A stretch of DNA of 5,062 bases from a virus (lineage: Duplodnaviria; Heunggongvirae; Uroviricota; Caudoviricetes). Below the pieces are notes generated by a model, which saw only the letters and a list, made by a program, of their open reading frames with translations, had not been told where the DNA came from and ran no database searches. The stretch lies in the IMG/VR virus record IMGVR_UViG_2698536505_000003; one strand, given 5' to 3'. Position numbers and translations under genes: made by a program. Shown piece by piece: positions 1 to 5,062 of the stretch; the stretch's first letter is position 1, and each line of letters begins with the position of its first letter.

Positions 1-101
1 AAATATCTTTCCCCCTCCGGCGTGCTTACCACGAAGCCGCACGACTCCGCTGGCGCACATCGCCGGGCGTGCGCCAGAATCGCTGATTCTGTCTGTGTCA
101 T
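1..101 (-). CDS. K: Minor tail (tail-tip assembly) protein K, N-terminal 33 codons only; the gene continues beyond the left edge of the window
   Basis: Reverse complement from the ATG at 101..99 translates to MTQTESAILAHARRCAPAESCGFVVSTPEGERY, which I recognise as the N-terminus of lambda gpK. It lies 5 bp downstream of the L stop, in the lambda gene order H-M-L-K. Too short to appear in the ORF track. Confidence 0.8.
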   Translation of the reverse strand, partial: MTQTESAILAHARRCAPAESCGFVVSTPEGERY

Positions 102-106
102 GGGAT

Positions 107-805
107 TTACTGCGAAAGTTTGTTAATGGAAAGGAAGCCGCCAAAGTTGCCGACGTTATTGCGGAACTTACAACCGCTCAGGCATTTGCTGCATTTATCC
201 TTCGTGATATCGGACGTTGGCTGGTCATATTCATCCGCGACAGCCGGACCGCTATAACCGCACTCGTCACCGCGATAGGTCCAGGTGCAGGTGTTGGCCA
301 GCATGATACGTCCCGGAAAAACAGCGCCATCCGTTTCCGTCGGCGTGGACAGTACAAAGGAGGCACTCACCGCGCTCAGTTCGCTGCACTGCTCAATGCG
401 CCAGCGGCTGATCACCTCCTGCTCCGGATCGGCATAACTGTTTCCGTTGACGAAGTTCACCGCATCCAGAAAACGGGCGTAAACCTTACGCCGGACCACC
501 GTTCCGCCGACCAGACTCTGCATATCTTCCGCCATCCCGGTGACCATACCGTACAGGTTAGAAACCGTCAGCGTGGGGCGCGTACTGGTGCCTTTGCCAT
601 TCAGTTCAAAACCGCTCCCCTGAATGGGATACGGCTGATACTGTCGCCCCTGCCAGGTGACCGGCTCACCTTTTTCGTTCTGCTCATTACAGAAAAAATA
701 ACGTTCTCCACCGACCTCTGTCAGGTCGATTTCCCAGAGCACCACGCTGGCCGACTGCTCCGCACGGGTGCATTCATTCAGTGTTTCCTGCCGGATATCC
801 TGCAT
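107..805 (-). CDS. L: Minor tail protein L (tail-tip complex), intact, 232 aa
   Basis: ORF track 107..805 (-), 232 aa, MQDIRQETLNECTRAEQ...FLSINKLSQ, matching lambda gpL in length and sequence as I recall it. The start ATG shares one nucleotide with the M stop (TGATG on the minus strand). The C-terminal half carries the Cys cluster (C173, C182, C205, C208, C212). Confidence 0.9.
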   Translation of the reverse strand: MQDIRQETLNECTRAEQSASVVLWEIDLTEVGGERYFFCNEQNEKGEPVTWQGRQYQPYPIQGSGFELNGKGTSTRPTLTVSNLYGMVTGMAEDMQSLVGGTVVRRKVYARFLDAVNFVNGNSYADPEQEVISRWRIEQCSELSAVSASFVLSTPTETDGAVFPGRIMLANTCTWTYRGDECGYSGPAVADEYDQPTSDITKDKCSKCLSGCKFRNNVGNFGGFLSINKLSQ

Positions 806-1134
806 CAGTTCACCACCTGTTCAAACTCTGCGCTGAACTCAACACGCAGCATACTGACCCGCGACGACCATTTTGCGCAGGTCACCTTTATCTGCCGCCA
901 CTCATAAGGCGGCGTCCACAGAAAGGATTTCCAGCCCCCGTGCTCTTCCAGAAACGACTCCAGTACCGTGGCCTCCTCACGGGGGACAGAAAGCGTCACG
1001 CTGTACGTTTTCAGGTTGGCATTCAGCCCGGCAGGCGCTCGCTGAGAATAGCCATCACCAAAGCGCACCTTTCTTACAGAAGGGACCGAAGCCACATCCA
1101 TACCGGGTTTCACTTTCCAGCGGAAGGTCTTCAT
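805..1134 (-). CDS. M: Minor tail protein M, intact, 109 aa (copy proximal to the intact L)
   Basis: ORF track 805..1134 (-), MKTFRWKVKPGMDVASVPSV...EFSAEFEQVVN, matching lambda gpM in length and sequence as recalled. Its start overlaps the stop of the upstream H-derived frame (ATGA). Confidence 0.9.
   Translation of the reverse strand: MKTFRWKVKPGMDVASVPSVRKVRFGDGYSQRAPAGLNANLKTYSVTLSVPREEATVLESFLEEHGGWKSFLWTPPYEWRQIKVTCAKWSSRVSMLRVEFSAEFEQVVN
811..818 (-). promoter_or_regulatory. Shine-Dalgarno-like site for L (AGGTGGTG on the minus strand, 5 nt before the ATG)
   Basis: Reverse complement of 806..820 is ACAGGTGGTGAACTG followed by ATG at 805..803. The same motif recurs at 3314..3321 before the truncated L copy. 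Confidence 0.5.
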
Positions 1135-1808
1135 CGTCCACCTCCGGAGAACAGGCCACCATCACGCATCTGTGTCTGAATTTCATCACGGGCACCCTTG
1201 CGGGCCATGTCATACACCGCCTTCAGAGCAGCCGGACCTATCTGCCCGTTCGTGCCGTCGTTGTTAATCACCACATGGTTATTCTGCTCAAACGTCCCGG
1301 ACGCCTGCGACCGGCTGTCTGCCATGCTGCCCGGTGTACCGACATAACCGCCGGTGGCATAGCCGCGCATCAGCCGGTAAAGATTCCCCACGCCAATCCG
1401 GCTGGTTGCCTCCTTCGTGAAGACAAACTCACCACGGTGAACAATCCCCGCTGGCTCATATTTGCCGCCGGTTCCCGTAAATCCTCCGGTTGCAAAATGG
1501 AATTTCGCCGCAGCGGCCTGAATGGCTGTACCGCCTGACGCGGATGCTCCACCACTGGCAGCACCGCCAATGGCGCTGCCGATACTCCCGACAATCCCCA
1601 CCATTGCCTGCTTAAGCAGAATTTCTGTCATCATGGACAGCACGGAACGGGTGAAGCTGCGCCAGTTCTGCTCACTGCCGGTCAGCATCGCCGCCATATT
1701 TTGTGCAATACCATCAAAGGTCTGCGTGGCTGCACTTTTAACCTGCGACATACTGTCCGTGGCGCTCTCTTCCCACTCACTCCAGCCGGACTTCAGGCCT
1801 GCCATCCA
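1131..1808 (-). pseudogene. H: Orphan 3' fragment of tape-measure gene H (last 225 codons plus stop), duplicated copy without its own N-terminus
   Basis: The H frame WMAGLKSGWSEWEES...RDGGLFSGGGR* runs from the junction at 1809|1810 to the stop at 1131..1133. The ORF track extends it to 1862 only by reading out of frame across M-derived sequence (GTG start, MAADKGDLRKMVVAGQYV). Carries the variant Gly-rich patch GGAASGG. Confidence 0.75.
1141..1145 (-). promoter_or_regulatory. Shine-Dalgarno for M (GGAGG, 6-nt spacer), embedded in the 3' end of the H frame
   Basis: Reverse complement of 1131..1145 is GGAGGTGGACGATGA. Identical sites lie at 2102..2106 and 3644..3648 before the other M copies. 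Confidence 0.55.
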
Positions 1809-2095
1809 GACATACTGACCCGCGACGACCATTTTGCGCAGGTCACCTTTATCTGCCGCCACTCATAAGGCGGCGTCCACAGAAAGGATTTCCAGCCCCC
1901 GTGCTCTTCCAGAAACGACTCCAGTACCGTGGCCTCCTCACGGGGGACAGAAAGCGTCACGCTGTACGTTTTCAGGTTGGCATTCAGCCCGGCAGGCGCT
2001 CGCTGAGAATAGCCATCACCAAAGCGCACCTTTCTTACAGAAGGGACCGAAGCCACATCCATACCGGGTTTCACTTTCCAGCGGAAGGTCTTCAT
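1793..2095 (-). pseudogene. M: Duplicated M copy with replaced C-terminus: M residues 1-95 fused to SGWQA* (loses the last 14 aa of gpM)
   Basis: ORF track 1793..2095 (-), 100 aa. Identical to M through ...KWSSRVSM (codon 95 at 1811..1813), then crosses the junction at 1809|1810 into H-derived DNA out of frame. Confidence 0.8.
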
Positions 2096-2938
2096 CGTCC
2101 ACCTCCGGAGAACAGGCCACCATCACGCATCTGTGTCTGAATTTCATCACGGGCACCCTTGCGGGCCATGTCATACACCGCCTTCAGAGCAGCCGGACCT
2201 ATCTGCCCGTTCGTGCCGTCGTTGTTAATCACCACATGGTTATTCTGCTCAAACGTCCCGGACGCCTGCGACCGGCTGTCTGCCATGCTGCCCGGTGTAC
2301 CGACATAACCGCCGGTGGCATAGCCGCGCATCAGCCGGTAAAGATTCCCCACGCCAATCCGGCTGGTTGCCTCCTTCGTGAAGACAAACTCACCACGGTG
2401 AACAATCCCCGCTGGCTCATATTTGCCGCCGGTTCCCGTAAATCCTCCGGTTGCAAAATGGAATTTCGCCGCAGCGGCCTGAATGGCTGTACCGCCTGAC
2501 GCGGATGCGCCGCCACCAACAGCCCCGCCAATGGCGCTGCCGATACTCCCGACAATCCCCACCATTGCCTGCTTAAGCAGAATTTCTGTCATCATGGACA
2601 GCACGGAACGGGTGAAGCTGCGCCAGTTCTGCTCACTGCCGGTCAGCATCGCCGCCATATTTTGTGCAATACCATCAAAGGTCTGCGTGGCTGCACTTTT
2701 AACCTGCGACATACTGTCCGTGGCGCTCTCTTCCCACTCACTCCAGCCGGACTTCAGGCCTGCCATCCAGCTCCCGCGAAGCTGGTCTTCAGCCGCCCAG
2801 GTCTTTTTCTGCTCTGACATGACGTTATTCAGCGCCAGCGGATTATCGCCATACTGTTCCTTCAGGCGCTGTTCCGTGGCTTCCCGTTCTGCCTGCCGGT
2901 CAGTCAGCCCCCGGCTTTTCGCATCAATGGCGGCCCAT
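1810..2938. repeat. Inserted duplicate segment, 1129 bp, colinear with 3352..4480 (offset 1542); its first 961 bp are also copy 2 of the 961-bp unit
   Basis: Bounded by the two junctions (1809|1810 and 2936..2938). I found 3 mismatches to 3352..4480, at 2662, 2701 and 2771. Confidence 0.85.
2092..2937 (-). pseudogene. H: Orphan 3' fragment of tape-measure gene H (last 281 codons plus stop), second duplicated copy
   Basis: The H frame WAAIDAKSRGLTDRQ...GGLFSGGGR* runs from junction codon 2935..2937 to the stop at 2092..2094. The ORF track shows the part from internal Met 2820 (242 aa). No SD precedes that Met, and the upstream truncated-L frame terminates at 2904 in a different frame. Confidence 0.75.
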
Positions 2939-3308
2939 AACTGTTTCCGTTGACGAAGTTCACCGCATCCAGAAAACGGGCGTAAACCTTACGCCGGACC
3001 ACCGTTCCGCCGACCAGACTCTGCATATCTTCCGCCATCCCGGTGACCATACCGTACAGGTTAGAAACCGTCAGCGTGGGGCGCGTACTGGTGCCTTTGC
3101 CATTCAGTTCAAAACCGCTCCCCTGAATGGGATACGGCTGATACTGTCGCCCCTGCCAGGTGACCGGCTCACCTTTTTCGTTCTGCTCATTACAGAAAAA
3201 ATAACGTTCTCCACCGACCTCTGTCAGGTCGATTTCCCAGAGCACCACGCTGGCCGACTGCTCCGCACGGGTGCATTCATTCAGTGTTTCCTGCCGGATA
3301 TCCTGCAT
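2904..3308 (-). pseudogene. L: Truncated duplicate of L: residues 1-124 followed by 10 aa (GPPLMRKAGG) read out of frame from H-derived DNA
   Basis: ORF track 2904..3308 (-), 134 aa. Identical to intact L through ...NFVNGNSY, then diverges at the junction 2936..2938. Lacks the whole C-terminal Cys-rich half of gpL. Confidence 0.8.
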
Positions 3309-4480
3309 CAGTTCACCACCTGTTCAAACTCTGCGCTGAACTCAACACGCAACATACTGACCCGCGACGACCATTTTGCGCAGGTCACCTTTATCTGCCG
3401 CCACTCATAAGGCGGCGTCCACAGAAAGGATTTCCAGCCCCCGTGCTCTTCCAGAAACGACTCCAGTACCGTGGCCTCCTCACGGGGGACAGAAAGCGTC
3501 ACGCTGTACGTTTTCAGGTTGGCATTCAGCCCGGCAGGCGCTCGCTGAGAATAGCCATCACCAAAGCGCACCTTTCTTACAGAAGGGACCGAAGCCACAT
3601 CCATACCGGGTTTCACTTTCCAGCGGAAGGTCTTCATCGTCCACCTCCGGAGAACAGGCCACCATCACGCATCTGTGTCTGAATTTCATCACGGGCACCC
3701 TTGCGGGCCATGTCATACACCGCCTTCAGAGCAGCCGGACCTATCTGCCCGTTCGTGCCGTCGTTGTTAATCACCACATGGTTATTCTGCTCAAACGTCC
3801 CGGACGCCTGCGACCGGCTGTCTGCCATGCTGCCCGGTGTACCGACATAACCGCCGGTGGCATAGCCGCGCATCAGCCGGTAAAGATTCCCCACGCCAAT
3901 CCGGCTGGTTGCCTCCTTCGTGAAGACAAACTCACCACGGTGAACAATCCCCGCTGGCTCATATTTGCCGCCGGTTCCCGTAAATCCTCCGGTTGCAAAA
4001 TGGAATTTCGCCGCAGCGGCCTGAATGGCTGTACCGCCTGACGCGGATGCGCCGCCACCAACAGCCCCGCCAATGGCGCTGCCGATACTCCCGACAATCC
4101 CCACCATTGCCTGCTTAAGCAGAATTTCTGTCATCATGGACAGCACGGAACGGGTGAAGCTGCGCCAGTTCTGCTCACTGCCGGTCAGCATCGCCGCCAT
4201 ATTCTGTGCAATACCATCAAAGGTCTGCGTGGCTGCACTTTTTACCTGCGACATACTGTCCGTGGCGCTCTCTTCCCACTCACTCCAGCCGGACTTCAGG
4301 CCTGCCATCCAGTTCCCGCGAAGCTGGTCTTCAGCCGCCCAGGTCTTTTTCTGCTCTGACATGACGTTATTCAGCGCCAGCGGATTATCGCCATACTGTT
4401 CCTTCAGGCGCTGTTCCGTGGCTTCCCGTTCTGCCTGCCGGTCAGTCAGCCCCCGGCTTTTCGCATCAATGGCGGCCCAT
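2939..4480. repeat. Distal copy of a 1542-bp tandem duplication (3' half of L through the H 3' region); 2939..4312 is colinear with 436..1809 (offset 2503)
   Basis: The L, M and H translations are identical between the two blocks except at the variant positions. At least 9 mismatches found between 436..1809 and 2939..4312. Confidence 0.85.
3308..3637 (-). CDS. M: Minor tail protein M, intact, 109 aa (copy directly downstream of the full-length H)
   Basis: ORF track 3308..3637 (-), protein identical to the 805..1134 copy. One synonymous difference (3352 a vs 849 g). ATGA overlap with the H stop, and GGAGG at 3644..3648. Confidence 0.9.
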   Translation of the reverse strand: MKTFRWKVKPGMDVASVPSVRKVRFGDGYSQRAPAGLNANLKTYSVTLSVPREEATVLESFLEEHGGWKSFLWTPPYEWRQIKVTCAKWSSRVSMLRVEFSAEFEQVVN

Positions 4481-5062
4481 TTTGCCCGTTGCTGCTGTGC
4501 GAATTTATCCGCCTGCTGCGCCAGCGCGTTCAGGCGCTCCTGATACGTAACCTTGTCGCCAAGTGCAGCCAGCTGGCGTTTGTACTCCAGCGTCTCATCT
4601 TTATGCGCCAGCAGGGATTTCTCCTGTGCAGACAGCTGGCGACGTTGCGCCGCCTCCTCCAGTACCGCGAACTGACTCTCCGCCTTCCACAAATCCCGGC
4701 GCTGCTGGCTGATTTTCTCATTCGCTCCGGCATGCTTCTCCAGCGTCCGGAGTTCTGCCTGAAGCGTCAGCAGGGCAGCATGAGCACTGTCTTCCTGACG
4801 ATCGCCCGCAGACACCTTCACGCCGGACTGTTTCGGCTTTTTCAGCGTCGCTTCATAATCCTTTTTCGCCGCCGCCATCAGCGTGTTGTAATCCGCCTGC
4901 AGGATTTTCCCGTCTTTCAGTGCCTTGTTCAGTTCTTCCTGACGGGCGGTATATTTCTCCAGCGGCGTCTGCAGCCGTTCGTAAGCCTTCTGCGCCTCTT
5001 CGGTATATTTCAGCCGTGACGCTTCGGTATCGCTCTGCTGCTGCGCATTTTTGTCCTGTTGA
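3634..5062 (-). CDS. H: Tail tape-measure protein H, C-terminal 475 codons; the frame is open to the right edge, so the N-terminus lies outside the window
   Basis: ORF track 3634..4878 (414 aa from an internal Met). My hand translation of 4879..5061 continues the same frame without a stop (...RLQTPLEKYTARQEELNKALKDGKILQADYNTLMAAAKKDYEAT...). Q/A/E/K/R-rich coiled-coil-like region, then a Gly-rich segment and the C-terminus GGLFSGGGR, as in lambda gpH. Confidence 0.9.
   Translation of the reverse strand, partial: QQDKNAQQQSDTEASRLKYTEEAQKAYERLQTPLEKYTARQEELNKALKDGKILQADYNTLMAAAKKDYEATLKKPKQSGVKVSAGDRQEDSAHAALLTLQAELRTLEKHAGANEKISQQRRDLWKAESQFAVLEEAAQRRQLSAQEKSLLAHKDETLEYKRQLAALGDKVTYQERLNALAQQADKFAQQQRAKWAAIDAKSRGLTDRQAEREATEQRLKEQYGDNPLALNNVMSEQKKTWAAEDQLRGNWMAGLKSGWSEWEESATDSMSQVKSAATQTFDGIAQNMAAMLTGSEQNWRSFTRSVLSMMTEILLKQAMVGIVGSIGSAIGGAVGGGASASGGTAIQAAAAKFHFATGGFTGTGGKYEPAGIVHRGEFVFTKEATSRIGVGNLYRLMRGYATGGYVGTPGSMADSRSQASGTFEQNNHVVINNDGTNGQIGPAALKAVYDMARKGARDEIQTQMRDGGLFSGGGR

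Follow-up and report, generated by a model that had tools for sequence, protein, structure and literature searches.

Apparent nested duplications in a lambda-like tail module are most likely a false joining of three natural haplotypes

The window analysed here, a stretch of DNA of 5,062 nucleotides, carries the lambda tail module H-M-L-K, with gene identity, order and strand all matching lambda, and repeats parts of it. This raises the question of whether a rearrangement expanded the tail module of one phage, which was the headline of an earlier note on this DNA, or whether the repeats were created in assembly from several near-identical lambdoid prophages, which was its fallback. Taken at face value, the sequence would suggest that the best-studied phage tail operon had been expanded in an unusual way, and it would contribute false extra fragments of L, M and H. 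Demonstrating an artefact prevents a false claim of gene gain.

The single-copy equivalent of the window is the reverse strand of lambda NC_001416 11675..14233 (2,559 nt), to which it shows 99.7% nucleotide identity; the reverse complement of this interval defines the ancestral positions 1..2559 ("anc") used below. In lambda, the tail-tip module H-M-L-K as a whole occupies NC_001416 10542..14875. By lambda mapping, window positions 1..1809 correspond to anc 1..1809, 1810..2938 to anc 849..1977 and 2939..5062 to anc 436..2559. Self-comparison yielded exact matches at offsets of 961 (850-1547/1811-2508 and 1564-1809/2525-2770) and 2503 (433-1809/2936-4312), and a match with 3 mismatches at an offset of 1542 (1810-2938/3352-4480). 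The repeats are direct, head-to-tail and collinear with lambda, and their units are drawn from a contiguous ancestral stretch. The nested geometry described earlier, with a 961-nt unit inside the first copy of a 1,542-nt unit, is correct to the base in both the self-comparison and the lambda mapping. The window contains the following genes and fragments:

1..101, minus strand: 5′ end of gene K (C40 peptidase, long annotation), from the K CDS position in B19374 and Z1323HEC0108
107..805, minus strand: intact L, 232 aa (ORF and lambda L annotation)
805..1134, minus strand: intact M, 109 aa (ORF and lambda annotation)
1131..1809, minus strand: H 3′ fragment of 679 nt in segment A (lambda mapping)
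1793..2095, minus strand: M′, a chimeric ORF of 100 aa consisting of M codons 1-95 and 5 out-of-frame codons from H (ORF list)
2092..2938, minus strand: H 3′ fragment of about 847 nt in segment B (ORF list and lambda mapping)
2904..3308, minus strand: L′, a chimeric ORF of 134 aa consisting of L codons 1-124 and 10 out-of-frame codons from H (ORF list)
3308..3637, minus strand: second intact copy of M, 109 aa (ORF list)
3634..5062, minus strand: H, 3′ 1,429 nt of 2,562, running off the window end (ORF list and lambda annotation)

All genes are read from the minus strand, so what is duplicated of L is the 5′ end (codons 1-124) and not the 3′ half, as had been stated, while the duplication of "most of M" can be specified as codons 1-95. 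Likewise, the H gene starting at 3634 had been called full-length, but only the 3′ part listed above lies in the window. An intact M, an intact L and the start of K do keep their order, with K represented by its first 101 nt only. Both junctions between the repeated parts are out of frame with H. Expansion of an internal tape-measure repeat was considered and rejected on this account and because the repeat units also take in M and part of L.

At ten sites (anc 849, 1548, 1551, 1556, 1557, 1558, 1563, 1701, 1740 and 1810) the three segments of the window disagree. With alleles given at anc positions, the segments are:

1..1809: segment A, anc 1..1809 (lambda 14233..12425); haplotype 434A, 849G, variant cluster 1548-1563, 1701T, 1740A
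1810..2936: segment B, anc 849..1975; haplotype 849A, reference cluster, 1701T, 1740A, 1810C
2937..5062: segment C, anc 434..2559; haplotype 434A, 849A, 1701C, 1740T, 1810T, 1976A, 2220C, 2321C

Both alleles of all ten between-copy sites are present in natural single-copy E. coli prophages, and all differences from lambda (18/18) are natural alleles. Along its 1,127 nt, segment B matches the single-copy prophage of E. coli B19374 at 100.0% identity. The closest natural match of segment A is Z1323HEC0108 and that of segment C is 2018-01-1CC and others, each at 99.9% with 2 mismatches. Because the best-matching genome differs from segment to segment and the between-copy differences are natural alleles, the window combines three haplotypes and does not represent one sequence that mutated after copying. 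No exact match to segment A or C was found among 5,426 complete E. coli genomes. These two segments are themselves haplotype chimeras whose switch points fall only in SNP-free stretches of at least 243 nt, as expected from lost short-read phasing. E. coli genomes are often multi-copy for lambdoid tail modules, with a median of 2 places per genome and a maximum of 13 or 14. A search for one genome with several different haplotypes of the module gave no direct example, and no complete genome with all three came up, which counts against an artefact of this kind; in ET220, two module copies lie 46 kb apart and are identical to each other.

The positions at which the segments begin and end are equally telling. 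Of the six boundaries, two are the ends of the window and four are the two sides of each junction; all six coincide with sites that vary among four natural references (anc 0, 1810, 849, 1976, 434 and 2560). Segment A starts directly after polymorphic anc 0 and stops directly before polymorphic anc 1810, segment B stops directly before polymorphic anc 1976 and segment C directly before polymorphic anc 2560. For six of six the analytic p is 2.6e-13, rising to 1.9e-10 when ±1 nt is tolerated; if only the four internal coordinates are counted (4/4 on SNP sites), p = 1.2e-9, and none of 2,000,000 random boundary sets reached five or more hits. In a biological duplication, breakpoints would be expected to be independent of population polymorphism, whereas in this SNP-site test they were not. 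Moreover, for k = 21 to 243, all k-mers of the window except those spanning a junction are present in three natural haplotypes, X, Y and Z. In the de Bruijn graph of X, Y and Z, the window's first k-mer corresponds to a merge vertex and its last to a fork vertex, and each junction runs from a fork through a single 'A' to a merge, with this 'A' natural at both the departure and the arrival site. The junctions are:

1810: junction 1, a single 'A' between the fork vertex (k-mer ending at 1809) and the merge vertex (k-mer starting at 1811)
2936..2938: junction 2, 'CAT' common to anc 1975-1977 (1976A allele) and anc 433-435 (434A allele)

Junction 1 is without microhomology, and its 'A' occurs naturally at anc 849 (B19374, Z1323HEC0108) as well as at anc 1810 (strain 2013C-4974). 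Junction 2 has a 3-nt microhomology, the middle 'A' (2937) lying between the fork and merge vertices; this base, too, is natural both ways, as 1976A in 2018-01-1CC and as 434A in B19374 and 2018-01-1CC. There are no Ns at the joins, only a single base between vertices. Several differences from lambda lie at junction coordinates, and junction-associated mutagenesis was considered for them; it was discarded since natural single-copy genomes carry the same alleles. Microhomology such as the 'CAT' of junction 2 is also typical of real illegitimate recombination and is a point against an artefact.

A single-copy H-M-L-K order in relatives, for which the earlier note had suggested a check, was confirmed: the best hits in phages, E. 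coli genomes and plasmids all collapse the query to three pieces covering about 2,559 nt. All best-matching records carry one copy of the module; records with a match numbered 205 for phages, 4,405 for E. coli and 59 for plasmids. A megablast search with the whole window found no one-piece match in 50,697 phage records or in the complete E. coli genomes, nor did a junction-spanning query in 72,556 plasmids. Neither junction 60-mer was covered by any of the 5,426 complete E. coli genomes. The exact junction 31/32-mers were absent from viral, genome and metagenome contig collections, and the search of viral contigs was also negative when repeated with the junction base wild-carded. Exact look-up of the L′ and M′ proteins in an index of 153 billion gene positions was negative, and a search of the open-access literature on lambda tandem duplications returned nothing specific.

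Judged from sequence comparison, the window is therefore best read, with a probability of roughly 85%, as a mis-assembled contig in which at least three lambda-like haplotypes form a false "heterotype" duplication, rather than as a biological rearrangement. The three haplotypes, the position of breakpoints and ends on SNP sites and the absence of the junctions elsewhere do not support the headline of a rearrangement that expands one phage's tail module, and the evidence favours the fallback, in which several near-identical lambdoid prophages gave rise to an assembly artefact, as the most likely origin. At least three near-identical haplotypes of the K-L-M-H region would have been present in the sample, whether in one genome with several prophages or in several strains. 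An exact-match assembler of the de Bruijn type would break these into pieces ending wherever the haplotypes differ, and three overlapping pieces (anc 1..1809, 849..1975 and 434..2559) could then have been written head to tail with their overlaps unmerged. Equivalently, the path would have jumped twice from a fork vertex to a wrong merge vertex via the single allele base 'A'. It counts against the artefact reading that no edge leads from anc 1809 to anc 849, or from anc 1975 to anc 434, in a plain de Bruijn graph. The reading therefore requires one more faulty step, for which negative-gap scaffolding, path spelling, gap filling and bubble handling are candidates. The haplotypes, the SNP-site boundaries, the decomposition of the graph and the lack of the junctions in other sequences are direct observations; which kind of software was used and where it failed are inferred. 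A phage or prophage molecule of such a structure need not exist. More generally, a duplication is probably a graph mis-join if its copies differ only by population alleles, its breakpoints and contig ends lie on those sites and its non-junction k-mers derive from few natural haplotypes. This diagnostic requires no reads and could be reused on suspicious repeats in prophage-rich or strain-mixed assemblies.

Several features of the window would nevertheless suit a real event. Nested tandem duplications in a single lambda-like prophage, caused by slippage or illegitimate recombination and followed by diversification of the copies through gene conversion with other lambdoid prophages, would fit the clean head-to-tail geometry, the 3-nt microhomology at junction 2 and the intact M, L and K start that remain in order, and tandem duplications of lambda DNA are classical. 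We consider this very unlikely, since all ten between-copy differences are pre-existing natural alleles with no private mutations, the model offers no reason for breakpoints and window ends to lie on SNP sites (p about 1e-10), junction 1 lacks microhomology and the structure is missing from every collection searched. In addition, 2,503 extra nucleotides would bring a lambda genome to about 51.0 kb, which puts it at the upper limit for packaging of about 105%. The three natural haplotypes in one molecule would be accounted for directly by unequal (illegitimate) crossovers between three different lambda-like prophages or phages, co-resident or co-infecting, with one parent per segment, and many E. 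coli genomes do hold several lambdoid tail modules. However, two independent illegitimate events would be needed within the same 2.5 kb, the exact position of breakpoints and window ends on SNP sites would stay unexplained and 0/5,426 genomes contain a related structure, which leaves this scenario with a very small chance of being correct. The corresponding picture of a real lambda-like prophage, with a nested duplication built by two illegitimate crossovers between three near-identical, co-resident prophages and a genome at the lambda packaging limit, is quite unlikely; if real, such a prophage would carry a truncated L, a truncated M and two 3′ fragments of H, flanked by a complete H on one side and a complete M-L-K set on the other. 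A topologically equivalent route, three tandem prophages with two near-genome-length deletions, would explain the haplotypes and was rejected because two deletions would have to end in the same 2.5 kb and the SNP-site breakpoints would again be unexplained.

The sequence could also have a computational origin other than a read assembler, such as a walk through a variation or pangenome graph with confused single-base allele nodes, faulty consensus or patching, or a simulated or generated sequence. Each junction is one 'A' that is legitimate at both sites, as would result from an allele-node collision, and every non-junction k-mer is natural. On the other hand, the window ends exactly at fork and merge vertices typical of assembler contigs, and we regard such an origin as unlikely. 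No sequence feature separates it from a false heterotype duplication made by an assembler, and the feature is not real under either. Chimeras from PCR, MDA or long reads were rejected on two grounds: template switching does not favour polymorphic sites, and the ends of the contig, too, are on SNP sites.

Tandem duplications of phage lambda DNA are a classical subject, reportedly described by Bellett, Busse and Baldwin in 1971 and by Emmons and co-workers in 1975. The window resembles these in its head-to-tail repeats of about a kilobase or more with little or no bounding homology. In contrast, the classical duplications lie within one genome and their new copies are identical, whereas here three natural haplotypes are combined and the breakpoints lie on population SNPs. 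Microhomology-mediated template switching and replication slippage share with the window the 3 nt common to the parental sites at junction 2, but junction 1 has no microhomology, and neither process predicts breakpoints at SNP sites or copies of different haplotypes.

False duplications that place haplotype variants side by side are a documented class of assembly error (Ko et al. 2022, Genome Biol 23:205, PMC9516828, which cites Kelley and Salzberg 2010), recognised there by a lower read depth of each copy and by read pairs that are discordant across the join. As in the false heterotype duplications of that study, near-identical variants of a locus are kept as separate adjacent pieces, the copies have variant-specific k-mers and truncated false gene copies result. 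In the window, the copies carry haplotype-specific variants known as separate single-copy sequences, and the joins and contig ends coincide with fork and merge vertices of the three-haplotype graph. Here these features take the form of three haplotypes, the chimeric L′ and M′ ORFs and joins at graph nodes. While the published cases concern diploid vertebrates, whose two alleles are retained as copies that a gap usually separates, the window joins bacterial paralogous prophage or strain variants gaplessly, with a single base between them.

Self-comparison of the window revealed three long families of direct repeats, with exact self-matches at offsets of 961, 1542 and 2503, and no inverted repeats. 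Phage lambda is 99.7% identical to the whole window, and in all top phage and E. coli records the 5,062 nt align as three pieces that share a stretch of only about 2,559 nt; in lambda this is the reverse strand of NC_001416 11675..14233 (numbered here as ancestral positions 1..2559). Mapping on lambda confirmed the repeat geometry of the earlier note, which had read the window as ancestral 1..1809, 849..1977 and 436..2559.

Segments of the window by alignment to lambda
1..1809, segment A, ancestral 1..1809
1810..2938, segment B, ancestral 849..1977
2939..5062, segment C, ancestral 436..2559

Gene content of the window
1..101, minus strand, start of K
107..805, minus strand, L
805..1134, minus strand, M
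1131..1809, minus strand, H 3′ fragment
1793..2095, minus strand, truncated M′ (M codons 1-95 followed by 5 codons out of frame)
2092..2938, minus strand, H 3′ fragment
2904..3308, minus strand, truncated L′ (L codons 1-124 followed by 10 codons out of frame)
3308..3637, minus strand, second intact M
3′ 1,429 nt of H, minus strand, gene continuing past the window end

Two details of the earlier description need correction: the duplicated part of L, called its 3′ half, is its 5′ end, as the genes lie on the minus strand, and H, called full-length, is represented only by its 3′ portion.

Lambda and the window differ at 18 positions, and the three segments disagree among themselves at 10 ancestral sites. 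Searched alone against complete E. coli genomes, segment A best matched strain Z1323HEC0108 (99.9%), segment B strain B19374 (100.0% over 1,127 nt) and segment C strain 2018-01-1CC and others (99.9%). When the window was tabulated against lambda and the single-copy prophages of these three strains, natural alleles accounted for every window variant: B19374 carries 434A, 849A, 1701T, 1740A, 1810C, 2220C and 2321C, Z1323HEC0108 a six-SNP cluster at 1548-1563, and 2018-01-1CC 1976A. Since mutation after a duplication would not recreate known polymorphisms at all five independent loci, we infer that the segments are not copies of one another but stem from different lambda-like lineages. Haplotypes are also mixed within segments A and within C, and among 5,426 genomes none matches either segment exactly, the best matches having two mismatches. 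The switch points inside A and C fall only within SNP-free stretches of at least 243 nt, and the natural phase is kept between SNPs up to 166 nt apart, a pattern that loss of short-read phasing would be expected to leave.

All six boundaries of the segments and the window coincide with polymorphic sites, though only 22 such sites occur in 2,761 compared positions. Segment A ends at 1809, adjoining position 1810 in H. Three bases occur naturally at this site: T (lambda and 2018-01-1CC), C (B19374 and Z1323HEC0108) and A (2013C-4974, NZ_CP027587.1). Segment B starts on the G/A polymorphism at 849 and ends at 1975, next to a G/A polymorphism at 1976, while segment C starts on the one at 434. Likewise, the window begins directly after a G/A polymorphism at position 0 and ends directly before a G/C polymorphism at 2560. 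The analytic p value is 2.6e-13 for the six boundaries (1.9e-10 with a tolerance of ±1 nt) and 1.2e-9 for the four internal coordinates alone; none of 2,000,000 random boundary sets reached five or more hits. None of the recombination or replication mechanisms known to us would put breakpoints at population SNPs. In exact-match assembly graphs such breaks do arise, since a node ends wherever haplotypes diverge.

Apart from those spanning a junction, all window k-mers with k from 21 to 243 occur in at least one of the 2018-01-1CC, B19374 and Z1323HEC0108 haplotypes. De Bruijn graphs were built from these haplotypes with k set to 31, 55 or 127. In each of them the window opens on a merge vertex, whose predecessors are A and G, and closes on a fork vertex with the successors C and G. 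At junction 1 (A/B), the k-mer that ends at 1809 forks into C and T when k is 31 or 55 and has the single successor C at k = 127; the window path continues with 'A' into a merge vertex starting at 1811, with A and G as predecessors. The k-mer that ends at 2936, at junction 2 (B/C), forks into A and G, and the path runs through 'A' to a merge vertex starting at 2938 (predecessors A/G). Each single 'A' is a natural allele of both the departure and the arrival site (1810A and 849A; 1976A and 434A).

The 31/32-mers spanning the junctions were absent from viral, genome and metagenome contig collections and, with the junction base wild-carded, from viral contigs. Moreover, none of 5,426 complete E. 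coli genomes covered at least 80% of either 60-nt junction query, no phage, E. coli genome or plasmid matched the window structure in one piece, and the chimeric L′ and M′ proteins were not found in the gene-position index.

Several lambda-like records show peculiarities of their own. Three PLSDB plasmid entries, NZ_CP082339.1 (Salmonella enterica, 48,502 bp), NZ_CP104294.1 (Stenotrophomonas maltophilia, 48,499 bp) and NZ_CP068597.1 (Paenibacillus sonchi, 48,499 bp), and the phage entry MW057783.1 ('Campylobacter phage CJLB-4', 48,361 bp) are of lambda length and show 99.6-99.7% identity to the lambda tail region; they give the impression of lambda DNA from controls or spike-ins that entered assemblies, not of true host replicons. 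E. coli ET220 (NZ_CP100981.1) carries two K-L-M-H copies about 46 kb apart (3141800-3145100 and 3188300-3191600), identical over about 2.6 kb save for a one-base homopolymer indel; the annotation gives a frameshifted K in one copy and a frameshifted H in the second. Two near-identical prophages may lie in tandem here, or a whole prophage may be duplicated in a long-read assembly that contains homopolymer errors. In the otherwise near-identical prophage of E. coli 14EC007 (NZ_CP024131.1 3105290-3109698), the tape-measure gene H is annotated as 5′-truncated next to an IS1A transposase gene, a genuine insertion-sequence disruption of the same tail module. Left of the window, at ancestral position about -33 (lambda about 14266), the lambda reference is one base shorter than the E. 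coli prophages (AAATAGCCTCC versus AAATACGCCTCC; loci L001, L003 and L005). This indel fits the differing annotations of K, which has 600 nt in lambda (14276..14875); in the prophages its homologue, a C40 peptidase gene of 744 nt, starts at window position 101.

Based on the three haplotypes, the boundaries on SNP sites, the decomposition into forks and merges, and the absence from public data, we regard the window as a false duplication made by assembly (probability roughly 0.85), the alternative that the earlier note had raised beside a biological rearrangement; the latter is not supported by the natural haplotypes, the SNP-site boundaries and the missing junctions. The mosaic copies would be explained by a genuine nested duplication with subsequent gene conversion, and the different haplotypes by real illegitimate crossovers among three co-resident prophages. 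However, neither accounts for all six boundaries coinciding with SNP sites, and both would have to form junction 1 without any microhomology; we consider each very improbable. A real structure would imply expression of truncated L′ and M′ from the late operon and a lambda genome enlarged to about 51.0 kb, which is at the packaging limit of roughly 105%. Slightly less improbable, though still unlikely, is a computational origin outside an assembler, such as a variation-graph walk confusing single-base allele nodes, or a generated sequence; by sequence alone it is inseparable from an assembly artefact, and it too would mean that the feature is not real.

Under the favoured assembly origin, the sample would have contained three or more lambda-like haplotypes, and the contig spelled from its assembly graph would make two illegitimate jumps, which amounts to joining three overlapping pieces without merging their overlaps. 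Neither jump corresponds to an edge in a plain de Bruijn graph, so a fault in scaffolding, path-spelling, gap-filling or bubble-handling must be assumed; both the type of software and the failing step are inferred. In vertebrate assemblies, 'false heterotype duplications' place variant copies of one locus side by side and create false gene fragments (PMC9516828), and the window would represent their bacterial, multi-prophage or multi-strain counterpart.
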